From: Schmidtea polychroa
Lineage: Eukaryota
Direction of reading: 5' to 3'
Assembly (NCBI GenBank): GCA_044892525.1
Contig: CM097885.1
Span: 20,214,001-20,278,000, forward strand
DNA: 64,000 nucleotides
Below, piece by piece: positions 1 through 27,947 of the stretch (positions are counted from its first letter, which is position 1; each line of letters begins with the position of its first letter). The position numbers were made by a program, and so were the translations under genes. The notes beneath the pieces are model-generated. The model saw only the letters and a program-made list of their open reading frames with translations. It was not told the DNA's origin and made no database searches.

Positions 1-752
1 ACCTCATCCCTTAATTTTACGGGAGGTTCGGGTGCTCGTCTTTTGCTCAACTCGTTCATTCTTATTATTTCGAGTTGCGTTGCTATCAACTGTCTCTTTA
101 ATTCTGGTATTTCTTGTAATTGCTTCTCTTTACTTTTCCATTTTCTCTGCTTGATGGTTATTGCCGTCTGCAATGCTTGCATGCTTCGTCGTTTTTGATT
201 TAAGATTCTCCGGTAATTTTCTTTCAACTTCCATTGTTTTTCTGTTTCCTCTCTTTGTTCCTTGATCTCTTCCTTGAGTTTTACATTTCTCTTCTCGACT
301 TTTTTACTTTCTCGCACTCTTGTTTTTGCATAAGCATATTGTGCTTCTAACTGCTCGATATAGACTTGGTCGATATTCACAATCTTTTTCAACTTCCTTG
401 TTTCTGATTTCCAATAATCTTCGATTACTGCCTGAGCTCTCAACTCTACTATCTCTTGTCTCAGGTTTTTATTTTCTGTCTCTTTTCGTTTCGATTCCTT
501 TATTTCCCTCAAAATTTCTTGCTTGACAGTGTTTATTAATCGTCTTGATTGAACAATATGCTGCCTCAATCTCGTAATCTCTACATTTTGATTTGCAATC
601 TTTAATTTGAACAACTTCTTGCTGACTCTCCATTTATTGCTATAATATTTCATCGGTTCTTGTTTGATTGGTATCATATCCTGGTTTTGTTCAGGTTGGT
701 CGTTTGACTTTCCTTCGTTACTCGTTGATTCTCTTTCTTTTAAATAATTCAT
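1..752 (-). CDS. Partial coiled-coil protein (>=250 aa, open to window edge; absent from the ORF track)
   Basis: Manual translation from ATG 752 (MNYLKERESTSNEGKSNDQPEQ...KRRAPEPPVKLRDE) has no stop to position 1. E/K/R/Q-rich with scattered W like the neighbouring 532-aa ORF; TTTTGTAG just upstream. Confidence 0.8.
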   Translation of the reverse strand, partial: MNYLKERESTSNEGKSNDQPEQNQDMIPIKQEPMKYYSNKWRVSKKLFKLKIANQNVEITRLRQHIVQSRRLINTVKQEILREIKESKRKETENKNLRQEIVELRAQAVIEDYWKSETRKLKKIVNIDQVYIEQLEAQYAYAKTRVRESKKVEKRNVKLKEEIKEQREETEKQWKLKENYRRILNQKRRSMQALQTAITIKQRKWKSKEKQLQEIPELKRQLIATQLEIIRMNELSKRRAPEPPVKLRDE

Positions 753-835
753 ATCTACAAAAATATACATATCATATTTCCTTTTGTCTTCTTTTTATTC
801 TGAATTTTTTGGTTTTGTAATTTTTATTTGGTTTT

Positions 836-837
<2 letters not shown>

Positions 838-901
<64 letters not shown>
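838..901 (-). repeat. 64-nt poly(A) tract on the coding strand
   Basis: Uninterrupted T-run on +, about 33 nt downstream of the 532-aa ORF stop and just after AAATAAG on minus. Confidence 0.9.
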
Positions 902-933
902 CATTCTTATTTACAGGCAACATCTCCCTTCGA

Positions 934-2532
934 CTAAATCCATGTTGCGTTATTTTGTTCGTTATTTTCATCGAAGCCTTCATCTGTGGTGACTTCGGCA
1001 GGCTGTGGCACTTGCAACGGGAACGGGTAGAGTGGCATTAATAATATTGGTGGTTGTCTCCTTAACCGATCTATTTCCTCTCGTAGTTCCGTTGAGATGT
1101 TTATTTCCTCATCCAATAAAAACGTTAATCTACCTTCGTTTTCTATCCTTTCGTTTAATTCCTCTTCCAATCGTTGGGTTCTTTCGAGCGTTTTTAGTTT
1201 TTCAATTTCCGCTCTCAAATTTGCTTCATTTTCTTCGAAGCATCGTTTTATTATCTCGGTTTCCTGTTTGGTTTGTTGAATTGTCTTGTCGCACTCCTCT
1301 CTATATTTCGCATTAAGCTCAATCTGGTGCTTCCAATTCACATCCCTTTGGGTGTACATACCTTTATATCCGTTCATCTCTTGATTGGCTTCTTCCACTT
1401 CGGTTTGTAATTGTCGGATCTGTCGATCTTGGTCTGTCAATTGTTGTTCCCATCTCTTTTCCTGGAATTCATACCTTCTTATTTCTCGAGTCTGTTTCTT
1501 TATGATTCTCTGTCTACCGTCGCTGATCCGCGTCTTGATTCTATGTTCTCTACTCAATCGGCTGATCTCATCTTTTTGGTTTTCTATCGTTTCCCATATT
1601 TTAAATTCGTCTCTTTCCATCAGTTTTATTGGTAACTGTCTTAACTCCTCTTTGGTCTCTTTCCAATTCTTTTTCCATTTTCGGGCTTGATGCTTGAGAC
1701 ACTTTTCGGTTTCCTCAGTTTTTTGCTGTCGTTTTCTCCACTCTACTTCCTCTTCTTCTCGCTGTGCAGCTCTTGTTTCGTAAAATTCTTGGTCTGCTTT
1801 TCGTAATCGCAGTTGTTCCTTGCTACTGATTTTCCAATAGAGTACTTGAGTTTGACTTCCTAGGTATTTATACTTCCATTTCTGGGCTTGTATCTTTATT
1901 TGTGTGTTAATTCGCTCTAATACGTTATCTCTAACAATTGGTTCTCTATGCGGTGTTCTCCTCCCTTGCCCTCTGACTTCGTTTAGGGTCTTTTTGCATC
2001 TTTCCCATTTTTCTTTCATCATTGCGCATTTGCCCTTTACTTCTTCTAGTTCGGCCTTGTAATTCCGTATTTGATGTTCGTGACTATCATTCTGCCTTGT
2101 CTGGAGGGTTTCGTACTTTAGTTTCCATTGTTGCGCTTGTAGTTTTATTCGTTCCGTTTTACGCTGTTCTTCCTCGTATTGCTCCTTTGCTTCCCTAATT
2201 TGTGCCTTCTGCATTATTATTTCTCCGCATAACCCAACTATCTCCATAATCCGCTGAGTTCGTAAATTCGAGAGCTCCTCCTCCAATTCTTGGTATGTTG
2301 AGGTATTTCTCACATCCTCGGTTAATTCCTCTACCTGTTTCATCCACTCCTCCTTTGTTGCTAGTGCTTCCGCCTTCTCCGCTTCTAATTCTTGTTGCTT
2401 TTTCTCATACATGGTTTTGTACATTTCTATTTCTCTCTTTACTCTTTCTGCTTCGTATGTTTGTATGATGGATTTGTACTGTTCGAGTTGTTGCATCTCG
2501 GTTTCCACATAGGTTTGTGATTCTTTATTCAT
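934..2532 (-). CDS. 532-aa coiled-coil accessory protein of the element, function unknown
   Basis: Long intact ORF with E/Q/K/R-rich heptad pattern, recurring 'QAxxWK' motif (QAQQWKLKY, QAQKWKYKY, QARKWKKNW) and a Pro-rich tail. Confidence 0.85.
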   Translation of the reverse strand: MNKESQTYVETEMQQLEQYKSIIQTYEAERVKREIEMYKTMYEKKQQELEAEKAEALATKEEWMKQVEELTEDVRNTSTYQELEEELSNLRTQRIMEIVGLCGEIIMQKAQIREAKEQYEEEQRKTERIKLQAQQWKLKYETLQTRQNDSHEHQIRNYKAELEEVKGKCAMMKEKWERCKKTLNEVRGQGRRTPHREPIVRDNVLERINTQIKIQAQKWKYKYLGSQTQVLYWKISSKEQLRLRKADQEFYETRAAQREEEEVEWRKRQQKTEETEKCLKHQARKWKKNWKETKEELRQLPIKLMERDEFKIWETIENQKDEISRLSREHRIKTRISDGRQRIIKKQTREIRRYEFQEKRWEQQLTDQDRQIRQLQTEVEEANQEMNGYKGMYTQRDVNWKHQIELNAKYREECDKTIQQTKQETEIIKRCFEENEANLRAEIEKLKTLERTQRLEEELNERIENEGRLTFLLDEEINISTELREEIDRLRRQPPILLMPLYPFPLQVPQPAEVTTDEGFDENNEQNNATWI

Positions 2533-2614
2533 TGTCTAAATAATTACACTATTACTACCACTATTATTTCATACATTTATTATCTACACTTTATACACGG
2601 AATTTTAATTTTTT

Positions 2615-2986
2615 TTATTGATCGGCGTAGCGGAATCCTTTGATTCGCTGCGCAATCCTCTGTCTGCACATCGGACATTCCTTTACTTTTCTACTACATG
2701 TGGCACATGCGATCAAATGTCCGCATGGCATATGAATAACTTCTACACTCCTCTCCCAACACATAGTACATTTGATATCTCGTAAGATAGCTGTTTTGAC
2801 CATTGATTCTTCTTTTATTTTTGTTTCAGGTTTTTCTCTATACTGGGTTATCGCTCTGATCATATCGTACGTTGTTGTTGGTATATGTACATTTTTCTGT
2901 AGTTTCTCTCTAATCATGTTCTTTGCCCTTGTCGTGCCTATTCCGGCTGCTTTCAACGCTCTGCACATGTTGGGTTTGTCTACCAC
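2615..2986 (-). CDS. C3HC4 RING protein of IAP/MUL1/MDM type; frame stays open upstream to about 3082, overlapping the polyprotein end
   Basis: CTMCWERSVEVIHMPCGHLIACATCSRKVKECPMCRQRI matches the C-terminal RING pattern of IAP-like E3s. The track start is GTG. Confidence 0.85.
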   Translation of the reverse strand: MVDKPNMCRALKAAGIGTTRAKNMIREKLQKNVHIPTTTYDMIRAITQYREKPETKIKEESMVKTAILRDIKCTMCWERSVEVIHMPCGHLIACATCSRKVKECPMCRQRIAQRIKGFRYADQ

Positions 2987-2990
2987 TTCG

Positions 2991-5900
2991 TCAACCTCTT
3001 GTTCGTCGATCCATAGCTGTTCCGGTATCTTTCCGTTTTGGCGGATTGTAAGTTGTATCTTTTGACGTGGTCGCTCCTGGATCTACTCTCCAGTTGCTCC
3101 ATTCATCGGTTGTGGTTACATCTTTATTGGCACCTCTTTCCACGTTATCTAAATCCGTCTCGGCTTCCGTCGTTTCCACTGGTTGTCTCTGCGCGCATAC
3201 AAATCCATCTAAATCATCAGTTGTCGGTTCACCTTCGTCGATAAATAGATCTCCTGATTGCGATGCTCTCATAATCTCGCCTGCTTCTACTATCTCTTGT
3301 AATTCATCCAGTATTTCGTCTTCTCCCGTTGTTTCGATCGTCACTTCACTAACCGCATTTGGAACTTCTGGTGTGTCCAAACTTCCTGGTTGTTGGGTGG
3401 ATGATTTTTGCTTTATCTCTCTTCTCCTTAGCTCTCTACCTGCAATTTTACTCACCGTTAATCTGTTCACAATTTCTCCTTGGAGTGGTGTCACACCGAT
3501 CTCAATATCGTCGTCTAATGATCGTCCCTCGTGTTGTAAGTGGAATGGGAGTTCATAAGGTATTCTCTTTTTAACTTCTCTGACTTTAGCTGTCGTATAG
3601 AATTCCTTTTCCATTGGTTCAAAATCTGGCATGAATATTTTTAATTGATATTTCTCAGGTGAGTTTTCGGCCCACTCTTGTTGTTTCCATTTCCGGATAA
3701 TTTCACCAAATTGTTCAGGGTACCATACGTACACCCGTCGATATTCTTCAATCGCTTTAACGATTTTTCGTAGGTTTTGAATCCTTTTGCATGATTCGGC
3801 TATCCATTTTGCTAGTTCTACCACCGCTCGTCGACGATTTTTCGCCCCGTTTTGTAATATCTCCATCAACTCCTTACATTTTTGTGCTTCCAACAATGTT
3901 GCTGCTTCTTCCTCATCTGCGTCGGCGTCTATTGGTAGATGTCCTGAATCAGACACTCTTCTCCTCATCATACAGATTCTCGGTTGATTTTCTGGTATGT
4001 TCAGTCGTTGGTTCATTTCTTGTTCTGTTTCAACTTCTACTCTGATCTGGATAGCATTGTTTTTCACAAATTTTGACTGCTCATTCTCAATGTAACTTAG
4101 ACGTATTAATTTAGGTGTCCCAGAAGCGATATTTTCTGATGTTGTTGGTCGTTGATAGCAGGCGCTCCTTGGATCTGGTTTCAATGTTTCTTTATGCCTG
4201 TTAAGGCTATCTTTCAATGGTTCGATTGCTATCGTCACTTTTCTGCTAAACGGCCATGGTACCTTGTCGTCATAATTTCCTTTGCAGATGACGAAGAATG
4301 CCGACACATAACTTCCTTTACCTATCCCGTCTCCGTTCGGGTATATTCGCAATTTCATCTTGTACTCACCTAATCCTGAGTAGAACGGTGGACTTACTAA
4401 TCGTGTGATTTTCTCTTCCTTTGCTGATTTTATCTTTTCCATCCAATTCTCAATTTTCCACGTGAATGGTGCTAACCTTACTGGTTCTCGTATCTCCTCA
4501 TCTTCTCCTGATGGTAATTCATTTTGGAATTCTTGTGGTAATATATCCTGGTAAGTATCGATCGGTTTCTCTCTTACCCATACTGCTGCGATCTCTTCGG
4601 GTATATTATCTATCCAATTTGGTTCCAACTTTTGCTGCTCCCAATCCCATCGAGCTTCACTTTCGATCCACACTTTTTTCCATGGTATCAGTTTGCAATC
4701 TTCGTCATTGAAGGCTGCTAGTTTTAGTTTATCATCCTTTAGCCAATGGTTATAAATATCTATTATTCGATCCATCTTTGCTCTCATTCCCCATTGGAAT
4801 CTTTTAACTTGTTGCTCGGTTTTCGTGGCGTTTTTGTGCCCACCAGATGGTTCATCCATCGCGATTATATTGATGACGGCTCCATCTTCCCAGATTCCTA
4901 GTTCGTAAATTACAGTTCGGTCTCCTCTTTCTAGCATGTGCCGGTTGTACATTATTATCACATCTTCGATCATTCCATCCTCACTATTTTCTCGAGCTTT
5001 TTGGATGATCTCTTGATCTATGATTTGCACTAACTCGTCAACTTGGCAATCGGGATTAACTTCTATTATTTGTTTCTCTTCATTTGGCAACTTCACCTTT
5101 ATTTTTATCGTTTCATGCTCGCATTTGGTTCTCTCGTATTCTCCGTATTTAGATATCAATTCTGTCGCTCGTTTGTCTTCGAATCTCATAATTTCCGTGT
5201 CTCGTACGTCTTTAACAAATTGTTTCATTAGTTGTGGCCATCTTTCTCTCAATCTATTAATGTATTTCCTTGTCTGATCGATAGCTTGTTTGACTAAGAT
5301 TATTTGGTTTTCTTTCATTATTTTTCGTTCGATCTTTTCCAATTCTGGTTCCACTTCATTGTTAAACACTTGTTGGATTTTCTTGAACATTTCTGCTACC
5401 GAGTCGTCATCTCTGGTTTTCTCTAAGGTTAAGATGTTAGTTTCGTTTGGCCATATCATCGCATCTACCAAATGTATGCCCATTTTAACTTTGTAACCAT
5501 CGACATATAATTGTTTATTTTTATGGCTCGTTCCCATTTTTTCCTGTACCCAGTTGTACAGTTCATCGGTATTTGTTCCTTTTAATTCAATAGTCTGTAT
5601 CTGAATCTCGGGGTGTTGAATACTTACTTGATATTGATCTGGGCCTGCTTCCTTTAGTTTCTCTTTATATTTTGTTGCTAAATCTTTCCATGCTGCCGTT
5701 ATTATACCTCCTTCGCACTGGTATACTTGAGTTATAAGTTTTAAGCATTTTCTGTATGTTAACTCGTTGATGTAGCTCTCATTTCGCTCTATTTCTGTTA
5801 CTGTGTCGAGAATTTCCTCGAATATCTCTTCTTCATCTTTTTCTATCATTGATTTCATGTCATCATTTTCACTCTCCTCACTACTTTGAGGTGTTTCACT

Positions 5901-7925
5901 GTTTGGAGGTGTTTTCGGTTCGTTATTTTCCTCACTTGACTGAAATAATTCGCCTCCCAGGCTACTCACCTCACTTTTCTCATCTTCCTGATCCGTCTGA
6001 TCGCTCCGCATTTGTCTCAGCATGTTTATTTTAGCTTTAGTATGTGGTTCCTTCTTTTCAAACCACTCATTTTTCCTGAACCAATGCTCTTTCACTTTTT
6101 CTTTTATTTGTTCCTCAGTTAATGTAGGATTTTCGTTTTTGATTCTGTCTTCGATTTTTTGTAGTAGTACCCTCTGAATTCGATTTTTTGTAATTATCTC
6201 ATTGCTTTTTGGTTCGTCTTTACTCTCATCTCTCTTTTGTCTCCTTTCTTTCTCCTCTTTGGTAAATTCTTTAATCAATTGTATTTTCTCTTCACTGCTC
6301 AATTCTGTTCGTGGATCAATCTCATCTTCTTTTGTCGTTTTTATCTCCTTGTTTATTATCGGTTCACTCCCGTCGTTGTTAACACACTGCTCCGCAGTGT
6401 GCGATTCCTCTTTATTTGTTAATCTCATCATATTTATTCTTCCGGGATTCGCTTCCCGTTGTTTCCATCTTTCTTGAATTTCTCTGGCTTCCTCGTTTTG
6501 TAATCTTTGCCATTCGACTCGTTGCTGATCTTGTTGTTGCTTACTTGGTTGGTTCCGGATTTCCTCGGTGCTCTGCATCATGTTGATTCGTTGTTGTTGG
6601 TTATTAGTCGGTATTCGCAGGATCATATCTCTTAATTGTTCGATTTCCTGCATGAGGTTGATTTGTGTGTTCTGAACTGGATTGTTTGATCCTGGTTGAT
6701 TTGGTTTGGTTCTCATCGTGCATTCTCTTGCCATGTGTCCAGGCTGATTACAATTGTAGCAGGTTCTGGTTCCTCCTCTGCTCATAGACATCATGGGTCC
6801 TCTGCAGACATTTTCCGTGTGGCCTCTTCTCCCACACTTTTGACACATCCTTGCTTTATAACATTCATTGCTCCAATGCCCTGGTCGTTGGCATATGTTG
6901 CACGTTCGATTGTTGATGTCGTTGTTCCTGAAATTATTAGTAAAATTTTGAATATTACCTCCATTGTTTTGGTTTCTTGTTTGTGGAGTTTTGAACAACT
7001 GTTGCGATCCTGGGATGAATTGATTCATTACTGGATTTGCATTATTGACTTGGTTGTTTGTGGTTGTTGCTGTTGTTGCTGGAGCTGCTGGGGCTGCTGT
7101 CATTGCTGCTACTTGTATTGGTGTTAGGTAAGTTTCACATTTGTTAGCTATTTTTAGTGCTTCTTCCAGCGTCTCTGGTGCTCGGCATCCCAAAGTTGCT
7201 CGTATATCCTCCCGTTTCATGCCATCTACGAATACGGCTATTATTTTGTCTTCCGGAACTGGTTGATTTGAATCGAAGGCTTCTCGTGCTAGTCGTCTCA
7301 ATTCGCATGCGTACAGTGCGTTGGATTCGTTATATTTCTGCTTTCGATGCAGAAAGTCTAACATTTTTCGATTTCCCTCTTTTTCGGTACCGAATGTTTT
7401 TATTAAAAACTCCTTGATCTCTTTCCACGTTCTCAACTTAGTTGCATCACATTTCGCCTCCAAGTATACATCTTGGGCGCTTCCCTTTAGATATAGGGGT
7501 ATTCGTTCTCGTACGACTATGTCTGGCCAGTGACATATCGTAATGTATACTTCGAATTCCTTTATAAACGTTTCCAGCTGGTTTATATTTCCATCGAATG
7601 GCTCTCCTCGAAATTTCTCTCTGAATTCTCCAATGTTGACGTGCACATTACTTGTTTCCGGTGGGTCCGTTAGCCCTGTTACATTTGGAATTCCGTCTGT
7701 CATTATTTCTTGACACAAAATTGTTATATTGGTTGACTCTGAACTATTTCCTTCCTCGTCTGATGATTCAATGTCACTTATCGGATCTAGTTCGGTTCGT
7801 TTAAGATCGTCGCTGTTCTCAAATTCGTTTGTTAAACTATCTGATTCAAATACTGTTTCTACTGATGCTGGCTTCCTGTGTAGTTTTCTGTTGGTCTTGG
7901 CCTTTTGTATCTCTTCCTTTTCCAA
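2991..7925 (-). CDS. gag: Gag polyprotein fused to host-like domains: capsid - 3x CCHC - Ubl - Ubl - TRAF MATH - Ubl
   Basis: Capsid ~7125-7620 (PFDG...LYLKGSAQ...RKQKYNES...PETLEEA). Three CX2CX4HX4C knuckles 6720-6902. Ubl-like segments ~5418-5636, ~4839-5111 (ends SGG) and ~3446-3653. MATH ~4029-4469 (FTWKI..SPPFYS..YPNGDG.GKGSYVS..WPF). Track start is TTG; first ATG is 7703. Confidence 0.9.
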   Translation of the reverse strand: MEKEEIQKAKTNRKLHRKPASVETVFESDSLTNEFENSDDLKRTELDPISDIESSDEEGNSSESTNITILCQEIMTDGIPNVTGLTDPPETSNVHVNIGEFREKFRGEPFDGNINQLETFIKEFEVYITICHWPDIVVRERIPLYLKGSAQDVYLEAKCDATKLRTWKEIKEFLIKTFGTEKEGNRKMLDFLHRKQKYNESNALYACELRRLAREAFDSNQPVPEDKIIAVFVDGMKREDIRATLGCRAPETLEEALKIANKCETYLTPIQVAAMTAAPAAPATTATTTNNQVNNANPVMNQFIPGSQQLFKTPQTRNQNNGGNIQNFTNNFRNNDINNRTCNICQRPGHWSNECYKARMCQKCGRRGHTENVCRGPMMSMSRGGTRTCYNCNQPGHMARECTMRTKPNQPGSNNPVQNTQINLMQEIEQLRDMILRIPTNNQQQRINMMQSTEEIRNQPSKQQQDQQRVEWQRLQNEEAREIQERWKQREANPGRINMMRLTNKEESHTAEQCVNNDGSEPIINKEIKTTKEDEIDPRTELSSEEKIQLIKEFTKEEKERRQKRDESKDEPKSNEIITKNRIQRVLLQKIEDRIKNENPTLTEEQIKEKVKEHWFRKNEWFEKKEPHTKAKINMLRQMRSDQTDQEDEKSEVSSLGGELFQSSEENNEPKTPPNSETPQSSEESENDDMKSMIEKDEEEIFEEILDTVTEIERNESYINELTYRKCLKLITQVYQCEGGIITAAWKDLATKYKEKLKEAGPDQYQVSIQHPEIQIQTIELKGTNTDELYNWVQEKMGTSHKNKQLYVDGYKVKMGIHLVDAMIWPNETNILTLEKTRDDDSVAEMFKKIQQVFNNEVEPELEKIERKIMKENQIILVKQAIDQTRKYINRLRERWPQLMKQFVKDVRDTEIMRFEDKRATELISKYGEYERTKCEHETIKIKVKLPNEEKQIIEVNPDCQVDELVQIIDQEIIQKARENSEDGMIEDVIIMYNRHMLERGDRTVIYELGIWEDGAVINIIAMDEPSGGHKNATKTEQQVKRFQWGMRAKMDRIIDIYNHWLKDDKLKLAAFNDEDCKLIPWKKVWIESEARWDWEQQKLEPNWIDNIPEEIAAVWVREKPIDTYQDILPQEFQNELPSGEDEEIREPVRLAPFTWKIENWMEKIKSAKEEKITRLVSPPFYSGLGEYKMKLRIYPNGDGIGKGSYVSAFFVICKGNYDDKVPWPFSRKVTIAIEPLKDSLNRHKETLKPDPRSACYQRPTTSENIASGTPKLIRLSYIENEQSKFVKNNAIQIRVEVETEQEMNQRLNIPENQPRICMMRRRVSDSGHLPIDADADEEEAATLLEAQKCKELMEILQNGAKNRRRAVVELAKWIAESCKRIQNLRKIVKAIEEYRRVYVWYPEQFGEIIRKWKQQEWAENSPEKYQLKIFMPDFEPMEKEFYTTAKVREVKKRIPYELPFHLQHEGRSLDDDIEIGVTPLQGEIVNRLTVSKIAGRELRRREIKQKSSTQQPGSLDTPEVPNAVSEVTIETTGEDEILDELQEIVEAGEIMRASQSGDLFIDEGEPTTDDLDGFVCAQRQPVETTEAETDLDNVERGANKDVTTTDEWSNWRVDPGATTSKDTTYNPPKRKDTGTAMDRRTRG

Positions 7926-8793
7926 TAAACTGAGGTTTCCTTTACTTTTTCGCCTCGTTCGGTTAGCTATGCTATCAATTTTTCCTCTTTTTAATATCCT
8001 TTGATAAATTTTCTACTTTGTCAATCGAGCTCGATGTTTTCTAAGTATTTTTCTCGCTTTAATCTTTACGATTCTCTAACTCTTCTTGGATTTGGTTTTA
8101 TTAATTTCCTTGATTCTTCGCTTCTAATTGATTTCTCTATATCTCTTGATTTCTATTGCTTTCTTGATTTCTTTGATTTCTTTCTGAATTGTTTGCTTTA
8201 TTCTAAAATAATTAACACCTCTAGTACATATCATAAATTCTCTTTATTAAACCCTTCATTTACTTTCCTTTTCCCTTTATTTTACTGTCCCTTCGCTTCA
8301 AATTTTCTAGCTTTCTACACTTCTCGCTATTCGCCCCATTTTGATTTTAAGTTGATTTTAAATTATCTATAACTCGTATCAATTATCTATATAGTCGTAT
8401 CAATTATCTATCCCTTTTATTATTATCATAGAAATATAATATTAATCACATAAATATCAAAATAAACATATCATTAATAAATAAAATTCAATAATTCAAC
8501 TACTATCTATTCGTTCGCTTTTCCCCATCCAAAAACTGGTTTAATTTTCGCTTGCGCCGGCGCTTTATCATAATTCTCCTCTACTCATTACATATTTATC
8601 GCACTTAATCTATTTCAGTTTAATCAATTTCATAGTTAATCATTGATGCTTTGGTTCGCGCGACCTCTACATCCACCTTTATTTACCATCGGCTCTCTGG
8701 CCGGTTTGTTCAACTCCTTTATTTTCATTTAAATCATTTCACTCAATTACCATCGGCTCCTTGGCCGGTTTAATCAACTCATTTTAATCTCAT

Positions 8794-9103
8794 GAAGTCT
8801 TTTACGACTCCTAGACGCCTGGGCTTTTACACCATTACGCCATATAATCTACTATTACCCATCAACGCTTTGGTTTGTTAGACCTCCGCGTCGGCATCGG
8901 CTTCCGGCCGGTTTAATCAAAATTGAAGTCTTTTACGACTCCTAGACGCCTGGGCTTTTACACCATTACGCCATATACTCTACTATTACCCATCAACGCT
9001 TTGGTTTGTTAGACCTCCGCGTCGGCATCGGCTTCCGGCCGGTTTAATCAAAATTGAAGTCTTTTACGACTCCTAGACGCCTGGGCTTTTACACCATTAC
9101 GCC
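8794..9103. repeat. 131-bp tandem repeat (~2.4 copies) upstream of gag, with degenerate pieces at 8645-8790
   Basis: GAAGTCTTTTACGACTCCTAGACGCCTGGG... starts at 8794, 8925 and 9056. Confidence 0.9.
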
Positions 9104-9222
9104 GTATTCGCGGTCTTCGGTCCCTGACCGGTTTCAAATGCCCTAAATGAGGTTTCTTCAACCCCCAGACGCCTTCGGTTTTAACACCTACTATCGTCCC
9201 TACCGCGATTAAATTGAGTTGA

Positions 9223-9789
9223 CAGTTGACTTTCGGGCTAATCAAAAATTCGAGGCTCCTCCTACTCCAACTCTTAATCTGCTGAGGCCTCACAACTGGC
9301 TCAATTCTTGGCCGCTTATTGAAAAGAGTCTAATACCGGTAACTCTAATCTCATCGCCGTTTCACTGGGCCTATCGGTACTCGGTGTGGGCATCCGGGTT
9401 TTGTACCGACCCCTGCTAGCAATAATCACGAAGAAAAACATCCTATCTATCAGGATTTAAAAAACACGGAAATGCCTAATCGCCTTGATCGTGATTCTCA
9501 AAAGTGATGAACCAGATCTCCCGACTAGTGAAGATAAAAGGAAATTGGATATGCAGTTGACTTTCGGTCTTCCGCCTCACAACTGGTCCAATCTTGGTTG
9601 CCTATTGAGTACGAGTCCTTTACCGGTTGACTCGCATCTCACAACCGTTTCACTGGGCTCCTTGATACTCGGTGTAGGTAACTGGGTCTCTCTCGCTCGC
9701 TACCCTTCCGGGTTTTTGTATCAAGTCCCGCTAGCAACTCAAAAAAGTGCGCCCAATACTCGGTGTGGCATCCGGGTTTTTGTATTGGG
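9223..9789. promoter_or_regulatory. Duplicated GC-rich hairpin modules upstream of gag (candidate packaging or translation signal)
   Basis: 9223-9420 and 9553-9738 are diverged duplicates. Hairpins at 9374-9409, 9661-9725 and 9752-9789 share a core and have compensated outer stems. Confidence 0.55.
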
Positions 9790-10511
9790 TGATCCAGCAT
9801 CATCAGTCCCTTGGCTGATAATCTCCTGGACACTACAGTCCGGTGGTTAGCCGCTGTACTCGGGTGCCTCATCACTCGCTAGGGAAAAATCATTATTCTC
9901 ATCTGATTTGAAGTCCAAAAACGGTTTCTTCAAATCCGCAGCTGCTCTCGGATTGAATTTTTTAACATTTAGCGCGCGTTTTTCAATTTTTATTTTATTT
10001 TTCTATTTTTATTCACCCTTTTTGTTAGTCCCCGTCTCCCAGACAAAAAAATATAATAATCGCGTTGGTTCGTTTCCCACAAGTGGTGATCAGTCACTGG
10101 ACAGAAACTCCCCAACATTTGCGATGGATCCTACTACATTCTCTCATCAGGGTGATCAGGATTTCCCCATCCGGGCAAGTGTCGTAAGGACGATTCACTT
10201 GTCATCCCCTCATTATCGTATCTCTTTATGCCAAAATAACAAACAGGAAGAAAAGAAAATTGGAAATAAAAATCGTACTGATCTTAGCGATCAGCTCATT
10301 CATACGACTATGATCAGTCCTGCATTCAACTTTGATTTTAGTTCTAATTGCTGTGTTGCTTGTCTATTTATTTAACGTATTTTGTGTCCTTTATATGTCT
10401 ATGTTCATCGTATGTTTTACACCTTTCGGTTGCTATAATGGATTTTTAATATAATTTACTAATTTTATCACTTCATATTCATTCACAAGAAATTTATTTG
10501 ACAACATCTCC

Positions 10512-10994
10512 TTATGGGAGGTATATTACAATTTTCTCTCTAACATTCGTATCGCATACGTTGCATCGTTTAATTTTCTCTGCGCAATTCTCGCAGTAGC
10601 ATAAATGACCACATGGAATCGTCATTACTCGTATTTCATTGGTTCTGCATATGAAGCATTTTCTAAAATCTTTAACTTGATGTTCGATTGCTTCTTTAAT
10701 TTCTTCCTCGATCGTTTCCATTTTTATCATTATCTCCTGCCATTTGATGTTAAATTTGGCATTGTCTAATCGTAAATTTTGAAGTTGATAAACTCTTTTA
10801 GTGGTCAATTCTGCATTAGGTGTCGCTATTTTCATCATTACGCATATTTCCTCAGCTTGCGGTCTTGGATTCAAGCTCATCTCATCTTGGATTTTTATCA
10901 ACTGGTCCGCTTTGCGATTTAGCCGTTGTAACGAATTGTGTGTTAAATCTACGAATTTTTCGAGTCTCTTTGTAATGTAGCCGGTTGATTCCAT
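10512..10994 (-). CDS. 160-aa coiled-coil plus IAP-type RING protein
   Basis: CFICRTNEIRVMTIPCGHLCYCENCAEKIKRCNVC...IYLP C-terminus; TTAATTAG directly before ATG; AATAAA at 10493-10498. Confidence 0.88.
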   Translation of the reverse strand: MESTGYITKRLEKFVDLTHNSLQRLNRKADQLIKIQDEMSLNPRPQAEEICVMMKIATPNAELTTKRVYQLQNLRLDNAKFNIKWQEIMIKMETIEEEIKEAIEHQVKDFRKCFICRTNEIRVMTIPCGHLCYCENCAEKIKRCNVCDTNVREKIVIYLP

Positions 10995-11370
10995 CTAATT
11001 AAGATTTATTAATTAAAGTTCTCTTTTTATTAATATTCCGCGTCATTTTTCCCCCTTTATCGTTTTTCCCCCTAATATCCAGAATACTTTATTTTATTAG
11101 TGCTTCGATAAACCTTTACATTCTACTTATTACCCTTAACAACCCCGTCTCCCTCTGTTTAATGCTCTATTCCGCGCACATTTCTTTCATGATCTTGTGA
11201 TTTTATTACAATCGTTTTAATTATATATAACTCATATCCCATTCCTTATCGCCATATTTTACACGTTTTCTGATTAAGTTTAATTTCATTGTTCATTTGT
11301 TCTATCTTTATTAGCGTGCTATCCCCCCTTTTCCCTATTTTTAAATTTTTATTATTTCCTTATATTTACA

Positions 11371-11508
11371 TTTTATTAATCGTTGCTATTTACAATTTTT
11401 TTATAATTTGTTTTCGTTTTAATTTTCATTTATCCTCAATTTTATTAATCGTTGCTATTTACAATTTTATTATAATTTGTTTTCGTTTTAATTTTCGTTT
11501 ATCCTCAT
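11371..11508. repeat. 69-bp tandem duplication
   Basis: TTTTATTAATCGTTGCTATTTACAATTTT... at 11371 and 11440. Confidence 0.8.
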
Positions 11509-11789
11509 TCATTCTATTACTAAGTTATTCGTACAGCATTCTCATACCCACTTTCAATACATTCATATGTCGTCATACTTTAAAACTTCCATCACTCATT
11601 TAGACATTCTACATACATTTTATCATATTCGCATATCCATATACTAAGTTTAAGCGCTTGGGAAAACAACCTGCTCGGTCTTGAATGCATATCACTTTAT
11701 ATCCGCTTTTACTCTCTCTATTATATCTATTCTCGGGTTCTTTCACCAATTAAATTTTCAATATCCCGGCTGAGCCCCCAAATTTGTAT

Positions 11790-12010
11790 GGTGGGTTACT
11801 GGTGGTTGAATGATTGAGTGCTGTTACCAGCGTAACCCAAAATACAACATTGTTTTTCCGCTTGGTACCCGTTGAGTGATCAACGTTGGTACTGTACCAA
11901 GGGTTGAGTACTCGCAAAAAGTGAGCGCATCAAAGCACTATAGTTGTCGAGTACTCCGTGGGTTCACGGACTACCGATAGAAGGTGTGTGTCCGATTTCT
12001 CAGGTCCCTT
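11790..12010. ncRNA. Conserved structured cis-element, copy 1
   Basis: Inverted homologue at 23398-23630 with compensatory changes in at least three stems. Confidence 0.6.
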
Positions 12011-12186
12011 TATCAAAATTGTTTTCCCAACCTTATGCACAAACTCTCATTTCCCAGGCAATCATAAACTGTACTAGTCCTTATTTTATCACTACAAAAC
12101 GTGCAGTATTTTAACAAGGAACATATTATTTGAAGACTACCACAATACATAAAAATACTACAAAACACCTAAAACCGAATATAAGT

Positions 12187-12699
12187 TCAAACAGGCTTAT
12201 TGGTAGGACTGGCCAATTCCGTCGCAGCTGCTAGTGACGAATTTGCTTGTCGCTCGTATTCGGCCAGTCTAGCTTTCTTCAATTTTTCCCGAATATTTCG
12301 GCCTAACCGCTTTCTTTTGGGTTTCTCTTTCGCGGCCGGGGGGTATATTGCTGCTAGTTCCACGGTCAACGGCCGGATTTGGCTTATGGCGGCTCCGTGA
12401 ACTACTTGTTCATTTCGCTCGGTTTCTAGCGCGCGGAGCTGGAGCTTCAGTGCCCGGATCTCCATCTGATCCTGCGCGGCTTGAGTCTGCAGTTGAAGGA
12501 CCTGCGCCACCTTCTTTTTCATATCCTCGGGACTAAACCAGGTGCTTTCTAGTTCCCGGCACCGTCCCTTGAGCTTGTCTACTCGTATGCGGAGCTCCTC
12601 GGACTGTTTTTGAGCTTCTGCCCTATCTCTTCGCAGATTTTCCAATAGTTTGAACACTAGATAAATTCAACGATTATATTCTTGCAGCGTACTATTCAT
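12187..12699 (-). CDS. Coiled-coil protein with basic NLS-like patch (KPKRKR); one in-frame TGA near the likely start
   Basis: The 156-aa track ORF starts at GTG. The same frame reads ATG(12699) NSTLQEYNR*IYLVFKLL..., so either a point nonsense change or a 36-nt GT..AG intron removes the stop. Confidence 0.65.
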
Positions 12700-12866
12700 T
12701 CAATTATAAAATAAAATCAATATTATAAATAGACATGGTTTCGGGTGTTAAGCACGCAATACACAAGATGATTTATTAAAAGGACTGAAATAATTATCAC
12801 TAAAATCAAAGTTTAATAAAGTCACAACTGGATGATAATTTGCAAAAACAAAATTTTGACGATGAG

Positions 12867-13232
12867 TCAGTTCAGTCGCTTGCGAGGCCTTCCCCTCTTC
12901 CGCGGGGTTGCCTCGGCCTCTTCTAGGTCCTCCACGGTTTTTCCCTCTTTTTCTGCTTGGATTTGCAGCTCGATCTTCTTGAGTCGCATCTGAGCTGCCT
13001 CTACCTCGATGGCCGCTCGGTCGCGGGCCTCTTGCAAAAAATCGTTTGTGGGCTCTGTTTTTACCCACGCCGGAGCGTCCGGCTCCGGCCCACTCCTGAT
13101 TACTGGGCCAAAGTTGTCGAGGTCCAAACCCCGATTCCAATCATGGATACGGTGCCATATGTACCGTGTACGGAGTCTGGTAAGCAGCTGTCGGTCGGCT
13201 TCTTCGTGGCTATCGCTGTCAGAGTAGGACAT
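12867..13232 (-). CDS. 121-aa protein with C-terminal AT-hook
   Basis: Ends TPRKRGRPRKRLN (RGRP core); has a VKTE SUMO-consensus site and a short coiled coil; TTTTGTAG 2 nt before ATG. Confidence 0.75.
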   Translation of the reverse strand: MSYSDSDSHEEADRQLLTRLRTRYIWHRIHDWNRGLDLDNFGPVIRSGPEPDAPAWVKTEPTNDFLQEARDRAAIEVEAAQMRLKKIELQIQAEKEGKTVEDLEEAEATPRKRGRPRKRLN

Positions 13233-13617
13233 TTCTACAAAATAATAATCAAGCCCCTCTATACTGATTGAGATACGACGTCAACCACAAGATTTTGTTG
13301 ACCCTTTTTCCCTTTAAAAAAAAAATATTTTATTTTAAGACTAACATCTATAAGCTTAGGAGTAGTGGAATAAGATTTCCTACTTTATCAAAACAAACAC
13401 AAAAAAAAAAAGAATTTCGTCAAAATTCGTTTGTTTAAATTAATCATTTCCATTCAAAATTTTGTTTACCACCGAGTGGTAATCTTAATTACTATTTATA
13501 AATTTTAATTTATATGTTAATAAAATGTGAATTTTTTTTTTAGATCGTCATTTTTAGGCCACTAAATTCGGGCACGCTGGGGCGACAGGTACTAGCAACG
13601 AACTAAGCTCTTCGTCT

Positions 13618-13628
13618 GCTTACCTTTC
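13618..13628 (-). promoter_or_regulatory. Candidate major splice donor GAAAG|GTAAGC
   Basis: Consensus 5' splice site in a GC-rich island (13555-13670) upstream of all minus-strand ORFs. Confidence 0.45.
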
Positions 13629-13747
13629 CTTCGGTTGTGCTCGTTATGAGTGGTTTGCTCTGCATACAAGTAATTTATTTAATTTGCTAATTTCTAAATT
13701 TCCAGGTGATCGATATCGGATTGGGATATCGATTTTTTGTAGTTAAC

Positions 13748-14100
13748 TGTAATAATACCAATAATAATAACAATGAAATAACGATACTAATAATAATAAT
13801 AATAATGATAATAATAATATTAATAATAGCAATGATAGTAATAATAATAAGAATAATAATAAATTTTAATAATGGTAATAATAATAATACTAATAATAAT
13901 AATAACAAGAATAATAATAAATTTTTATAATGGTACTGATAATGATGATAAATATAATAATGCTAATTATGATATTCATAATAATGATAACAATAATATA
14001 ATAATAATAAGAATAAGAATAATAATACTAATAGTAATGATAATGTTGATACTGCTAATAGTAATAACAAGGGAAATGATCAGGATTATGATAACTATAA
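13748..14100. repeat. Degenerate (AAT)n microsatellite
   Basis: Read directly. Confidence 0.9.
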
Positions 14101-14849
14101 TTTTACAATCCCATGTTTTAGAATTATAAATTTATGTTTTATAATTTATACTTTGATAATTTTCGATTTATAATTTAAAATTTTTCAATTTAGGGATTTA
14201 CAATCTTGTAATTTATAATTATAATTTCATATTTTGAAATTTATACATTCATATTTTATAAGTTATAATTGCTTAACTTATAATTTCTAAGTTTATAATC
14301 TGAAATTTATACTTTTGTAATTCGTATTTTCGTACTTTATAATTTGAAATTTTTAGTCGACGGAATATACTTCTTACAACTTCCTTTCTATGATCAACAT
14401 TGTTTTCCGCAGTACTTACAGATTTCCTGGTCCTATTTGTGGATTAAACTTCAGGGTTCTAGCGCGTCTATCGCCTATTACTATCTCTGATCAGACTTTC
14501 TCCATTAACACTTTACATTTTCAGGATCGACGTGATTTGTACCTAGCTATCGTAATTATTTATAACTTATAGTTTTATGGTTAACAACAAGAATATTACA
14601 ACTAAGAGCCTACACATTTACAAACCTTTTAAAGTGGGAACTAGATTTAAAATGTCTATCTTTACTCGGAATCAGCATATCTAGGCCAAGTTATACCTGT
14701 ACGTATGCCGAATATCTCTCTTATTTCTATTACTTTATCAAAGATCCTTACTACAAAATCTAGTTCGGCATATGTCTAAGCATAATTGAAATTACCATTA
14801 TGAATCAACTAGCTACATTAATGTGAGTGTAGAATTGTGTAATTTTAGG

Positions 14850-16074
14850 TACGAGCTCTACTCAAATTAGAACCTTAGTGTAGAGTTATTGTTCAGGATT
14901 TTAAGTGTTGAGTTTAATTGTATATTACGCAATGAGTCGGGAAGAATATTGCTTCCATGGCCCCACTGTGACCACGTCCACAAACCTTAGTGTTGTGTGC
15001 TAAGTCAACCATTTACGGCTGACCTTAAATAAATACGAAGAGTCAGGCGGAGGGTTTCCTCGACCTAACTCCATGGCAGGACCATGAAGTAGTTCGACCT
15101 CCGGCTGACCCGAACAAAAAGAAATCATATAATAAATATCACTATAATAATGATAATGCGTGTCTGCATGTCCTGTTAATAACGATTTTAATAAATTGGA
15201 TGCAGGACTGAACAACGACGCAGGAATACCAGTACGCCGTTGATCACTCATACATCGCAAAAAAAAAATTTAAGCAAAAATAAATTTAAAATACCATCTA
15301 TATAATTAAACAATTAATATACAAATAAAGATCAATGCTTACTATCGATTTTGGAAATTTCGTCACAAAAATTTGGCATAAAAGTGATTGATTGTGACTG
15401 AAACGTGTCAGTATATATACCTATTTAGTACACGTGTATGTATTGATGCATTAAAACAAACTCGAATTCTTTTTATTCCAGAATTTTCTATTTTACGATT
15501 TTGCTATTTTTAATGGCAATTTTTTGTGCCATAATTTTTGTTTTTATTTTTATATTTTTATTTTTTAATTATTTTTCATTAATTTTACGTCCATGATGGA
15601 TTTGGAACGGTTCCAGAACATTCTATTTTACTTTTAATTTAATTTTTATTTTAACTGATGTTTTTATGAATTCTTTTTGAGATTTTTTTATTTTTAATAC
15701 TAATTCATTTATTTTCCTTAACTTTTGTTGTTCTAGATGACTTTTGTGATGGTCATCGCCATTTTATAGAATGTTCTGGGTTTTTCTGGAATTTTTTACT
15801 ATTTTTATCGTCTTTTCAGTTATTCGAGTTTGCTTTTGGTAATTCTATGTTTGTTTGATTATTTTTGAGTTAGGTTTTTGCATCACTTCTTGCTTCTGTA
15901 TAATTTTATTTAATTTCTTTGTTTATGTTTTTGTTGCTTTCTCCTTTAGTTAATATTGTTTATTTGGTGTGTATTTTAATATTTAACTATACTTTTTGCT
16001 TTTTACATGTTGTGTACCTGCACGTTTCAGTCACAATTAGTAGTTTGGGTCTAGAAATCAGTTCTAGCCCAACA
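14850..16074 (-). repeat. Terminal repeat copy A (LTR end or long TIR)
   Basis: Outer ~750 bp closely matches 25080-26273; inner 14935-15120 closely matches the reverse complement of 19030-19215. Confidence 0.85.
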
Positions 16075-17863: not shown

Positions 17864-20184
17864 CAAGAGTCGGTTTCATTTGAGAAATTTGATTGTAAGA
17901 TTATAATTTTAATCAATCTCAGAACTTGGCTCTGTCTTCTTTTACAATTCATTCCTGCGTTAGCTTCCTTAAGTAAAATATTGTTGGGCTAGAACTGATT
18001 TCTGAACCCAAAGTTAGGAATGGGACGAAATGTGTCAGTACACAACACGTATACCCAGCATTAAGTTTACTTAAATAAAAATATATAAAACACCAAGTAA
18101 ACAATGATAATAGAGAGATAATATACCCAAAAATAAAACATCTGAATTAAAAATAAAATAAAATACTAGCAAGAAGTATTACACGAAAACTTACTCAAAT
18201 ATAACCGAAAGACATAAAACAACAAAAAACAAATTCGAATAAAGGCGATTAGTAAAAATTAAAAAAGAAAATTATAGAAAATCTTCATAAAATCTGACGT
18301 AAAGAAAATTATATCAATATTTTGAATAAAAATCCAGAACAATTCATAAAAATGGCGAAATCCATCATGACCGCCAAACGACCCAATAAAATTTATAAAA
18401 AATAAATATTTTAGTTTAAAAAATAAAATTTTTAGAAAAGAAATCATAAAAACAATTTAAAAATAAGAAATAGATTAAATTTAGCATGAAATGTTCTGGA
18501 AATGCTGAAATCCATCATGGAGGCAAATTTAATAAAAAATAATTCAAAAACAAAATTCCAAAAATAAAACAAAAATTCTTACTGAAAAATCGCCATCAAA
18601 ATCGATAAAAATTAAAAATCGTATGTTCGAGAATTAAAATAATCCGAATTTGTTTTACTGCATCAATGCACGCATGTATACTTACACGTCAAACAGAGGC
18701 TATATAAACTAACACATTTCGTCACTTTTTAAGGAAAAAAATGCAAATGAATATTTTTACTCTTATGCCAATTTTTTGGTTTTGATTTTTCTGAGATTGT
18801 AGGTAAGGACGATTTCATTGTGAATTATAAATTATTATTATTGAAACCTTGTTTTCATTATTTCTTTTTAACTATAGAAATGTAGGTTTGAGTGAGATCG
18901 TCGGTTATCATTGATTTTGAAGCGAGATCCCAGCCAACCCTGCACTTATGCACTTTATCATCGATGAGTAAACAGCCCACAATGATTGCAGGCCACTGCC
19001 TGGCACGCACTTCTCAATATTATTGGTTTTTTTTTGTTCGGTCATCGGAGGTCGGCCACTTCATGGTTCTGCCATGGAGTTGTGTCGATAAAACCCCTCC
19101 GCTATGGCTCCATATAATTATTTATCGGTCGACAGCGATGTTTCGACTCGACACTACAGTAGGGCTTGTCGTAGCGGTCACAGTGGGGCCGTGTAAGCAA
19201 GCATTCTTCCCGACTATGAATGCATTACACAATTAAAATCACCATTAAAAATTCGGCACACTAAGTCACACTAGAAGTATAATCGAGTAGATCTCAGACC
19301 TAAATTAAACACAACAATCGCAATTTGAGTAATGTAGTCAGTTAAAAACAACTTTACTTATACGCTTGTCGAATGTCACTTGTAGATAAATTTTTAGTAA
19401 CAGCATAATGATCTTCTCGTAACTAATCGTAATAATATCATAAAGAAGTTCGACATGCGGAATAAGCCTAATTAATTATAAAATCCTCAATAACCGTCAT
19501 ATAGCTTTACCTCGTGGTTAAAATATAGATCGCTAAAGCCCAAGTCAATCTTGAAATGTAAAGTCTGGGTGTAGAAAAATTAACCCCTCATATTATCAAT
19601 CATCAAATGTTCTTAATTTGGCATTAAAAATCGTTCCATCAACTGTAAACCGTTATCAATAAATTATTATCGGCTACAAAATGAAAGATAGCATTGAAAA
19701 ATGAGTCAAACCTAATTCTATATTATGTATAAATACCTAACATCGCCAATCATGAAAGGAATTTATTTAGAAATTTCTTCTACAGCCAGAAACCTAAGCT
19801 ATATAAATCATTAAGGATAAATTTATATTACGACCAAGAACCGGAACCGTATATCCTCCTTCTGCTTAAATTATAATGTATCAAATTGCCAATTATAACT
19901 TCGGAATTAATAGTACTACGTATGACCCAATTTGTCCCTCAAATGTGGATTAGGAACGCGAGTATTTATGAAAATTTACAATGATCTTATAAATGATAAA
20001 TCGTAACTTTAATCTATATATCGAGTATAAATTAAAAGCCTTCTTCAAGTATAAATTGTGCAGTATAAATTACCTACATTGTAAATTATAACTTAAATCG
20101 TCAATGATTGCTTGAGCATATTAGATTATATCGCATTTATATAGGGTTGAATTGTAGTTCCTTTGAAAGCATAATTTCTTAATT

Positions 20185-22592: not shown

Positions 22593-23397
22593 TGCAAAAT
22601 ATCACTAATTAATAATATATAATAAAAAAAATGGTTTGTTAAAAATAATTAGTTAAAACAAGTTTAAAATACTTCAAACTGACGTATAAGTTTTATTTAA
22701 AATGTAAGCAACGAGTATTGTAAAATTAATTTAATATTATTATAAATTTTGAATTAAAATTTTTTTTAAAAAAATTCTAGAAAAAATCTATTATTAATAG
22801 AAAAAAAAATTTTTAAAAATAAATAAAGTTTCAGTCAATTTGAATTTTCTAGAAGTATCTCTTAAAATTATATAGGGAATTGTTTCGTAACAGTTATTGA
22901 TGTATTTTGAATTTGTTTAACTTGAATTAAAAATATAATATTAACAAAAACGTATTGTGAGATTTTGATTGTTGATCTAACCATCTCTCTATAACTACCC
23001 GGGCTCAACAAAGGGAGTGTCATTGTAGGTCAACTAGGACAATCATAGTCACCACGAAATACGCTTAGTCAAATAATACGCGGTCATAAACAATCATGGT
23101 TCTTGTAAAGTTATTATATTTTGTTGTTGTGGTTGGTGAAATTTCTGACCCTTATTTGTATGTTCACCAATATATAAGTTTTTTTTTGATTGTTCTCTAA
23201 TTAAATTCATTATCCTCAAAAATTTCTTAAGGTATGTTTAATAAACTATGGCTATGTTTCACTTAATTTATATTCAAACATTTTAGATGTGGTATTGTAT
23301 GAACAGGTTTTAATAGATTAATGTATGATTCCTGGTGACTTATGATCGTTTGAGGATAGAAAGTTTGTATAGGCATAGTTGAGAAAGTAATTATAAT

Positions 23398-23630
23398 AAG
23401 GGACCTGCGTAAATCGGACATATATCTTCTAACGATAGTCCGTGAACCCAAAGGAGTGCTCAACAATTACAGTGCAAGTAGTGCGCTCACGTTTTGCGAG
23501 CACTCACCCTCTTGATACAGTACCAACGTTGATTACTCAACGGGTATCAAGCGGTAAGCAATGTCGTATCCTGGGTTACGCTGGTAACAGCACTAAAGAG
23601 CAAAATATTTGATCATCAGAAACCCACCAA
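23398..23630. ncRNA. Conserved structured cis-element, copy 2 (inverted relative to copy 1)
   Basis: Reverse complement aligns to 11790-12010. Confidence 0.6.
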
Positions 23631-25667: not shown

Positions 25668-26145
25668 CACGTTGACTGCCACGCGTGTTTACAACAAAAT
25701 CCCCGTCAGGCCACCGGCGCCACTGTAAGATGCGTGCTCTGCTACCGCATGTCTGTTTACATTTCTTTCGGTACTCTCAGCCCGATATCTATTACGATCC
25801 TCATTTATCACGTTATTACTCTGCACGAGCAGTTGTAATCTTTGCCGTGCAAATCTCAGAAAACCCACTACTTTTTGTCCAAGCTGCCCTGGTCAACCGC
25901 AACTTTGCAGTGAATGCTTCAATATTTTACACTGTAAATAATTTTGTTAATAAACGATTTTTAAAAAAATTCAACAGTATTATTATCTCCTGTCATATAT
26001 TTATCTAAATATGTTCGGAAATCCTTTGGAAGGAGTCACCCGATGTGGCCTGATGAGAACTCTTGCTGTCACCCGAATACGGGTGACGTGGCCTGATGAG
26101 AACTTTTGCTGTCACCCGAATACGGGTGACACGGCAGTTAACGTG
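25668..26145. mobile_element. Non-autonomous piggyBac-type element, 478 bp
   Basis: TTAA on both sides; TIR CACGTTGACTGCC / GGCAGTTAACGTG; empty site visible in the paralogous terminus at ~15941-15960; 43-bp subterminal repeats. Confidence 0.9.
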
Positions 26146-27606: not shown

Positions 27607-27947
27607 TTAAACGTTAACAGCCAATTTAATTGCATCTGTGAACTCTTTCAACAGTTGAGAAACGAGAGTAATTTGTTCCGAATTCACTTTAATATTGCAA
27701 ACAGAATCACCAATATTGTTAGGATTATATTTAACGGTAATTTCAATAAGACACGGTAACTGACTGGAACAAGAACTTCCAGCGTATCGCAAAATAATAC
27801 CAAAATCATCTCGGTTATTGGAGACTGTAGTAATATTCGATACACTATACACAGCTTGACTGATCCGTTTAATGAAATCTTTGACAGTTAGAGTAGATGA
27901 AAGAAGTGGAAAAGAATTTGTGAATTCATTCATTCCTCTTAACTTAT
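27607..27947 (-). CDS. AP3B1: AP-3 beta last exon (ear domain)
   Basis: TTTAG acceptor, then KLRGMNEF...[18 protein letters not shown]...AVNV*. Confidence 0.85.

Follow-up and report, generated by a model that had tools for sequence, protein, structure and literature searches.

How does one retroelement RNA give rise to several separate proteins? The question is raised by a 64,000-nucleotide stretch of the Schmidtea polychroa genome (the window: positions 20,214,001 to 20,278,000 of contig CM097885.1, assembly GCA_044892525.1), the first 13.7 kb of which is, judged by its sequence, the 5' part of a high-copy Ty3/Gypsy long terminal repeat (LTR) retroelement of the Burro type. The element is read on the minus strand, and seven open reading frames (ORFs) of at least 100 aa lie on that strand within positions 1-13232. 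Its unspliced RNA would be polycistronic with a 4-kb ATG-rich leader, and scanning from the cap could not reach most of the ORFs, so that these would need separate 5' ends. An earlier note on this DNA had proposed that one donor is spliced, as in complex retroviruses, to acceptors in front of four accessory ATGs, or else that host spliced leader (SL) trans-splicing resolves a polycistronic RNA. The analysis described here identifies a non-random acceptor signal ahead of the ORFs, including gag, and tentatively points to the host SL as its partner.

The five motifs on which the note was built are all present at their places on the minus strand, namely the donor-like AAG/GTAAGC with its GT at 13623 and four AG/ATG sites. 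The AGs end at 13235, 10995, 2536 and 755, the first exon bases would be 13234, 10994, 2535 and 754, and the ATGs follow at 13232, 10994, 2532 and 752. Acceptor A1 (13235..13246) is a T-rich TAG before ORF A1, and acceptor A2 (10995..11003) is the weakest of the set. Acceptor A3 (2536..2545) lies 79 nt past the stop of the RING2 ORF, and acceptor A4 (755..764) 179 nt past the stop of ORF A3. For counting, a site was defined as YAG 0-3 nt before an ATG with at least four T in 9 nt. This rule was chosen after the sites had been seen, and the P values derived from it are therefore somewhat flattering. A T-rich TAG stands 0-3 nt ahead of the ATG in four of the seven ORFs, as compared to 69 of 1696 ATGs elsewhere in the window (P 9e-5) and none of 100 other ATGs in the non-coding DNA of the element. 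Local shuffles gave P 6e-6. With the first-ATG starts of chance ORFs as control (11 of 253) P was 1e-4, and with the T requirement dropped and YAG alone counted (23 of 253 control starts) it was 2e-3. The enrichment of T-rich TAGs at the ORF starts is a non-random signal. The claim that these AGs are acceptors serving separate ORFs is thus well supported by the statistics, and it extends to gag. In total, the element contains 14 strong acceptor-like sites, three of which precede A1, A3 and A4, while one lies at 8203. The element's acceptors are shaped like the host acceptors in three 41-46-nt introns of a gene at about 22590-21940 on the minus strand, presumably a MANF/ARMET-like host gene. 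This gene changes frame at a T run, possibly through misassembly, and breaks elsewhere in the window could likewise be errors.

The site at 8203 is a fifth acceptor (8203..8216) in front of gag, which the earlier note had missed. Of the gaps between 307 ATGs, the one that it opens is the longest (526 nt versus 263 nt for the runner-up). The ATG-free run spans 7704..8228, and the next ATG is found 499 nt downstream of the site. In place of the zero ATGs observed in 500 nt, a base shuffle predicts 8.5 (P 5e-5) and a dinucleotide model 4.4 (P 0.012). From 8012 onward no stop interrupts the gag frame, and conserved residues in this frame lie upstream of the Met at 7703; about 92 codons are open and conserved before the first ATG. 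Five database gene models (P0001 to P0005) match gag at 52-58%. Four of these matches begin at an ATT codon at 7979, which sits in good context, and the fifth begins at 8054. In our reading, four of the five models also show an exon-like block starting ES-I at about the corresponding place. Together, this suggests that the gag mRNA may begin or be spliced near 8203, possibly with a near-cognate start codon. Taken as a set, the sites at 13235, 10995, 8203, 2536 and 755 are probably 3' splice sites.

The T-rich TAG could also have a role outside splicing. Internal promoters might use it as a start-site or translation-context motif, or it might have been left behind when host-derived cassettes were captured, with the ORFs being read from unspliced RNAs. 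This explanation is fairly unlikely, although several observations agree with it. In A2 and A3 the TAG doubles as the in-frame stop that bounds the ORF. Furthermore, a shared 10-mer, GGAGATGTTG, occurs directly 3' of the stops of these two ORFs (P 0.012): the first copy (10502..10511) immediately follows the A2 stop and continues into AAATAA, and the second copy (918..927) follows the A3 stop and continues into GAATGAA. A 64-nt A run (838..901) lies past A3, between A3 and A4, and such an arrangement would be expected of modular cassettes. The ORF-start control, however, already accounts for the bounding stops. The gag site, located 499 nt ahead of its ATG, also fits a splice site or a 5' end better than a start-codon context. 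The GGAGATGTTG motif itself may signal a 3' end or, alternatively, be an internal site resembling a polypurine tract. The AATAAA-type signals that had been noted after several ORFs do not rise above chance level (29 in 4673 non-coding nt, near three of six stops).

Less can be said for the donor. The earlier note placed a consensus donor upstream of all four ATGs, and the position of this site (13618..13626, GT at 13623, score 8 of 9) holds, but it does not stand out from chance. The same score is reached by five other sites in the element, so that there are six in all, five of them inside ORFs. At the host rate of 0.23 per kb, about 1.3 such donors would be expected over the 5.8 kb that precede the gag frame (our arithmetic), and the single donor at 13623 is therefore within chance. 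No 8-of-9 donor was found between the primer binding site (PBS) and gag.

The anatomy of the LTR bears on the same question. The candidate 5' LTR (11785..13668, 1884 bp) runs from TGTATG to CATACA with a 6-of-6 terminal inverted repeat. Its inner end (11785-11789) is firm, being marked by the PBS, by a relic LTR and by two joints at 11789 in the contigs of sequencing run X7. The PBS is of the tRNA-Pro type (11763..11780) and starts four bases past CATACA. Over its first 9 nt it is identical to the conserved head of PBS-Pro reported in PMC10602909, pairing with a host tRNA being a prediction, and loose ends of run X2 lie at its edge (11762/11763). An LTR ending in CA (11785) and followed by a tRNA-type PBS is what a Ty3/Gypsy element should have. 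Next to the inner end, a conserved R/U5-like segment (11785..12030) has a fold z of -3.74, with none of 200 shuffles equally stable. The relic, a related LTR end on the plus strand (23340-23643, 80% over 262 nt), shares 12030-11789, stops there and has no primer site; the R/U5-like segment matches it over 23340-23597 at 80%. A 22-nt U5 motif had no match in metagenome or viral contigs. The outer LTR start is tentative, since there is another TGTATG at 15254, and 12149 has a 9-of-10 match. A 365-bp LTR starting from 12149 was considered and found unsupported, as similarity to the relic declines at positions higher than about 12070. The start could also lie beyond 13668, and 13750-14830 could belong to the element. 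With the LTR ending at 11785-11789, A1, ORF2 and the donor are within or before the LTR, and the two ORFs (13232-12187, minus) appear to lie inside it.

If it belongs to the LTR at all, the donor is no more than 45 nt in from the likeliest LTR start (13668), and it precedes the primer site by 1.8 kb. Two putative promoter boxes, TATAAAT at 13514 and 13500 (13494..13514), lie downstream of the donor. Given this position near the outer edge, upstream of both the TATAAAT boxes and the PBS, the GT at 13623 is probably part of U3 or of the flank and not of the 5' leader. If transcription starts past the TATA boxes or near about 12000, the RNA would contain the donor at its 3' end alone, and A2, gag, A3 and A4 could not use it.

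For a single leader exon ending at 13624 to be spliced to each acceptor in the style of complex retroviruses, transcription would have to start upstream of 13624. This scheme, which requires either a very short U3 or an LTR beginning beyond 13668, is improbable. It would draw on the fact that 13623 is the sole 8-of-9 donor upstream of gag and on the unfixed LTR start, by which 13750-14830 could be part of the element. It would also draw on a joint in run X7 (depth 910) that starts exactly at 13624, resumes at about 13471 and drops 152 nt, as an intron lost from some copies would. However, one donor of this score is expected by chance, and both the boxes at 13514 and 13500 and the conserved, folded R/U5-like block (12030-11785) are located downstream of the donor. 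As for the X7 joint, its landing site, which is none of the four acceptors, has GG instead of AG at its end in the present copy. In addition, the nine purines directly ahead of 13623 could equally be a polypurine tract. The joint may be either an intron lost from copies differing there or a length difference near a possible polypurine tract. No junction from 13624 to 13234, 10994 or 2535 is seen among the 15 of 39 contig joints listed. The shared leader exon for all four ORFs is left unsupported, its donor probably lying outside the 5' leader.

In the explanation preferred here, the element would carry a 3' splice site ahead of each cistron, at 13235, 10995, 8203 (gag), 2536 and 755, and these acceptors would have no dedicated upstream donor. 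A presumed host SL would most likely be joined to them, as at outron or operon-type sites. One capped mRNA per ORF would result, while most of the RNA would remain unspliced as the genome. Three features make the SL the likeliest partner: the lack of a strong donor between PBS and gag, operon-like gaps of 79 and 179 nt between stop and acceptor, and a host group with SL trans-splicing. Even so, the proposal is unproven and has somewhat less than an even chance of being correct. SL trans-splicing occurs in S. mediterranea, as cited in PMC12582326, where a threshold of 300 bp is used for flatworm operons and where such sites show the least cis-splicing and low SL levels. The RING2-to-A3 (79 nt) and A3-to-A4 (179 nt) intervals are same-strand gaps below 300 bp with an acceptor at the downstream start, the arrangement by which an SL polycistron is recognized.

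The acceptors may instead be served in cis by other donors. In that case, short 5' exons from R/U5 or from local internal promoters would be joined to them, partly through mini-introns of host size. A GTA is indeed found 38-65 nt upstream of three of the five acceptors (42 nt for A1, 61 nt for gag, 39-61 nt for A3), which corresponds to the size of host introns, and TATA-like boxes occur 60-270 nt before A1, A2, the gag acceptor and A3. It was also reported that flatworm SL acceptors are often used in cis-splicing as well (PMC12582326 and PMC4558846). However, a GTA at this distance precedes 45% of non-coding positions by chance and is missing for both A2 and A4. The TATA-like matches number 14 in 13.7 kb, with five inside ORFs, and no such junction occurs among the listed joints. 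Splicing from such donors is considered unlikely.

Several observations weigh against the sites being used as proposed. Regarding spacing, the nearest landmark upstream is 768 nt away for the A2 acceptor and 2309 nt away for the gag acceptor, distances that are not those of an operon. The others come from sequencing runs. Part of the stretch is contained in 10 of 15 runs, and four of the 15 were compared with 905-13745 in the form of contigs, so that acceptor A4 (754/755) lay beyond the comparison. X1, X2 and X5 are possibly RNA runs (from three studies, their RNA status being a guess), X7 is probably a DNA run, and no run recorded as RNA contains the stretch. Contigs cross 2536 unbroken in X1 (1871-2605, depth 247), X2 (1871-2847) and X5 (2315-2702), and contigs of X1 and X2 cross 8203 unspliced. 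The spliced form is therefore not dominant at these two places. No junction at an acceptor was found among the listed joints, which is a weak negative; these joints all have a depth of at least 160 in some run, compared with 5-16 for the contigs of X2 and X5, and rare forms are lost from contigs. Likewise, the 22 of 720 loose ends listed include none that is SL-like and located at an acceptor, and none of the 40 of 566 letter differences listed falls at an acceptor. For the SL trans-splicing of a polycistronic RNA suggested by the earlier note, the spacing and the type of host fit, whereas support from reads is absent among these loose ends. That every acceptor with cover was crossed unspliced also agrees with a motif that has nothing to do with splicing, but unspliced genome RNA is expected in any model. 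Three further joints were set aside: 13334-2603 and 6450-13671 are likely AT-rich mismatches, and 8236-8340 is a divergent segment whose ends are not GT-AG. Cover is low over 12917-13745 in X1 and X5, and X2 covers the last bin but not 12059-13345; depth by bin was not counted as evidence.

Extended to its full consequences, the SL proposal describes a Burro-type element built like a flatworm operon. From one genome-length RNA the SL would yield at least five capped mRNAs including that of gag, gag would carry a conserved AUG-less N-terminal extension from AUU, and the LTR would encode proteins, so that solo LTRs would be small genes. In this complete form it is a doubtful, if possible, picture.

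The gene content places the element in a known family. The gag polyprotein (2991..7703, 1570 aa) contains a Retrotrans_gag/Ty3 capsid region, three CCHC knuckles and MATH. Retrotrans_gag was detected with E 6e-7 (above the cut-off), Ty3_capsid with E 1e-6 (slightly below) and zf-CCHC with E 2e-11, which gives the capsid with zinc knuckles typical of Ty3/Gypsy. A ubiquitin-like segment received a weak Pfam hint in one of three segments tested. No protease (PR), reverse transcriptase (RT), RNase H (RH) or integrase (IN) was detected in the gag polyprotein, and no pol domain in the seven element ORFs scanned, the DNA beyond position 1 lying outside the window. The element is probably a non-autonomous derivative without pol in the 13.7 kb in view. 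Comparison of the gag tail with PDB sequences gave nothing useful, a weak search found no relatives of 2749-5000 aa, metagenome contigs held no gag relative, and the three of the five gag-matching gene models that were scanned contained no RT. The motif I-N/C-M/L-M/L occurs five times at domain borders of the polyprotein (residues about 445, 470, 520, 656 and 1340 counted from 7979) and also in P0001-P0005. These motifs are candidate protease sites, though no protease is in view, an arrangement consistent with an autonomous Burro acting in trans to process the polyprotein. Within 4408-5325, long contigs of a relative in X1 and X5 (the longest 19130 and 14104 nt) match over short parts only; this relative is possibly the autonomous partner. 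The very high copy number is evident from the X7 contigs (n=22301), which blanket all of 905-13745.

The accessory ORFs differ in how much can be recognized. ORF A2 (10512..10994, 160 aa) is a C3HC4 RING protein (Pfam PF13920, E 3e-12) encoded upstream, between PBS and gag. Residues 6-154 of P0001 match it at 31%, and P0001 begins at the corresponding Met. A second C3HC4 RING protein is encoded by RING2 (2615..2968, 117 aa), whose frame is open from 3082 and overlaps the gag end in a different frame (3082-2991, minus). RING2 has no acceptor, and its arrangement may reflect a separate cistron, a programmed frameshift or a break in the present copy. ORF A3 (934..2532, 532 aa) and ORF A4 (1..752, continuing past the window edge) are coiled-coil-like, as judged from sequence without a Pfam match, and no homologue of A3 was found among the top 7999 candidates. 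ORF A4 weakly resembles the C-terminus of P0004 (34% over 76 aa, E 3e-4), and an extra ATG lies in its frame at 770, upstream of acceptor A4. As P0001 opens with an A2-like RING and P0004 closes with a weak A4-like piece, the element and the gene models seem to share their ORF order. Apparently inside the LTR, ORF2 (12187..12666, 159 codons) is a coiled-coil/basic open frame with a T-rich AG at 12657; its 5' end is broken near 12670 in the present copy, and like A3 and A4 it has no Pfam family match. ORF A1 (12867..13232, 121 aa) has a basic C-terminus, which we take to be AT-hook-like. Neither a Pfam family nor a homologue was found for it and the Atlas was blank; its single match, an immunoglobulin-repeat protein, was rejected. 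ORF A1 and ORF A4 each contain a KxE site, presumably SUMO-consensus-like.

Complex retroviruses and foamy viruses carry several accessory ORFs, each behind an acceptor, with ORFs in or overlapping the LTR and a major donor past the cap site. The accessory ORFs behind acceptors and the ORFs in the LTR recall this plan, but in the present element the likely promoters seem to follow the donor, and no env or pol is in view. Foamy-like endogenous retroviruses of fish are named in PMC6431247, an extract of which also provides the description of Burro/GYPSM1 used for comparison. The likeness to Burro comprises Retrotrans_gag, three CCHC (two to three in Burro), MATH, RING cargo, coiled-coil (SMC-like) ORFs, an upstream accessory ORF, a tandem repeat, high copy number and an AT-rich host; the AT content here is 70% (compare PMC11410931). 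In contrast, the Burro polyprotein is a single chain of about 5000 aa that continues to env, PR, dUTPase, RT, RH and IN, whereas the present one ends at 1570 aa, with none of these and no BCL2 detected and no BIR or ankyrin in view. The extract of PMC6431247 mentions the upstream accessory ORF and is silent on its expression, and that of PMC8532177 shows Burro expression, with Burro RNA increasing upon piwi knock-down, and makes no mention of splicing. No literature on splice or SL sites ahead of Burro accessory ORFs was found in a search that did not extend to Repbase entries or paper supplements.

A precedent for SL use is Cer1 of C. elegans (PMC3315495). This Gypsy-like element makes a genome-length RNA that stays unspliced, and the host SL can be present on a subgenomic RNA. 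Cer1 differs in having one SL site and a multiply cis-spliced 2.4-kb RNA, whereas the present element has five putative acceptors before separate ORFs. Flatworm SL operons likewise have same-strand ORFs 80-180 nt apart with an acceptor beside the downstream start (PMC12582326, PMC5832876), but these operons consist of host genes. The SL is fused to some transposons in S. mansoni, though not to resolve ORFs, according to the extract of PMC5832876. Finally, ta-TRIM and lennie of Echinococcus provide the example of a non-autonomous flatworm LTR element with its PBS four bases from the LTR end and with an LTR donor that can splice in cis to an SL acceptor; ta-TRIM, however, is shorter than 1 kb and non-coding (PMC4558846).

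Other features complete the picture of the window. A 131-bp tandem repeat (2.4 copies, 8793..9107) lies within the long leader. An Rfam scan of 1-16000 returned two sub-threshold matches and nothing useful, and neither did ARAGORN. Upstream, the element is bounded by three diverged copies of another dispersed repeat (14836-16074, 17978-19311 and 24978-26278; 67-92% in pieces). On the minus strand, the window further contains an AP-3 beta C-terminal exon (27607-27933), a Tc5/pogo-type DDE transposase (34119-35698) and a hAT transposase in pieces (41250-43172).

Overall, the signal is real and non-random and belongs to a variant of an already known family of elements; its mechanism is as yet unproven. 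The literature examined does not say by what means giant planarian retroelements express their many ubiquitin- and apoptosis-related cargo ORFs, and the claim made here can be tested directly at five named positions with existing types of RNA data. If the acceptors do take the spliced leader, a mobile element would use the host operon machinery as its whole expression plan, going beyond the single site of Cer1. The balance between genome RNA and mRNA would then depend on the supply of SL; in S. mediterranea, one of the SLs is stem-cell-enriched, as cited in PMC12582326.

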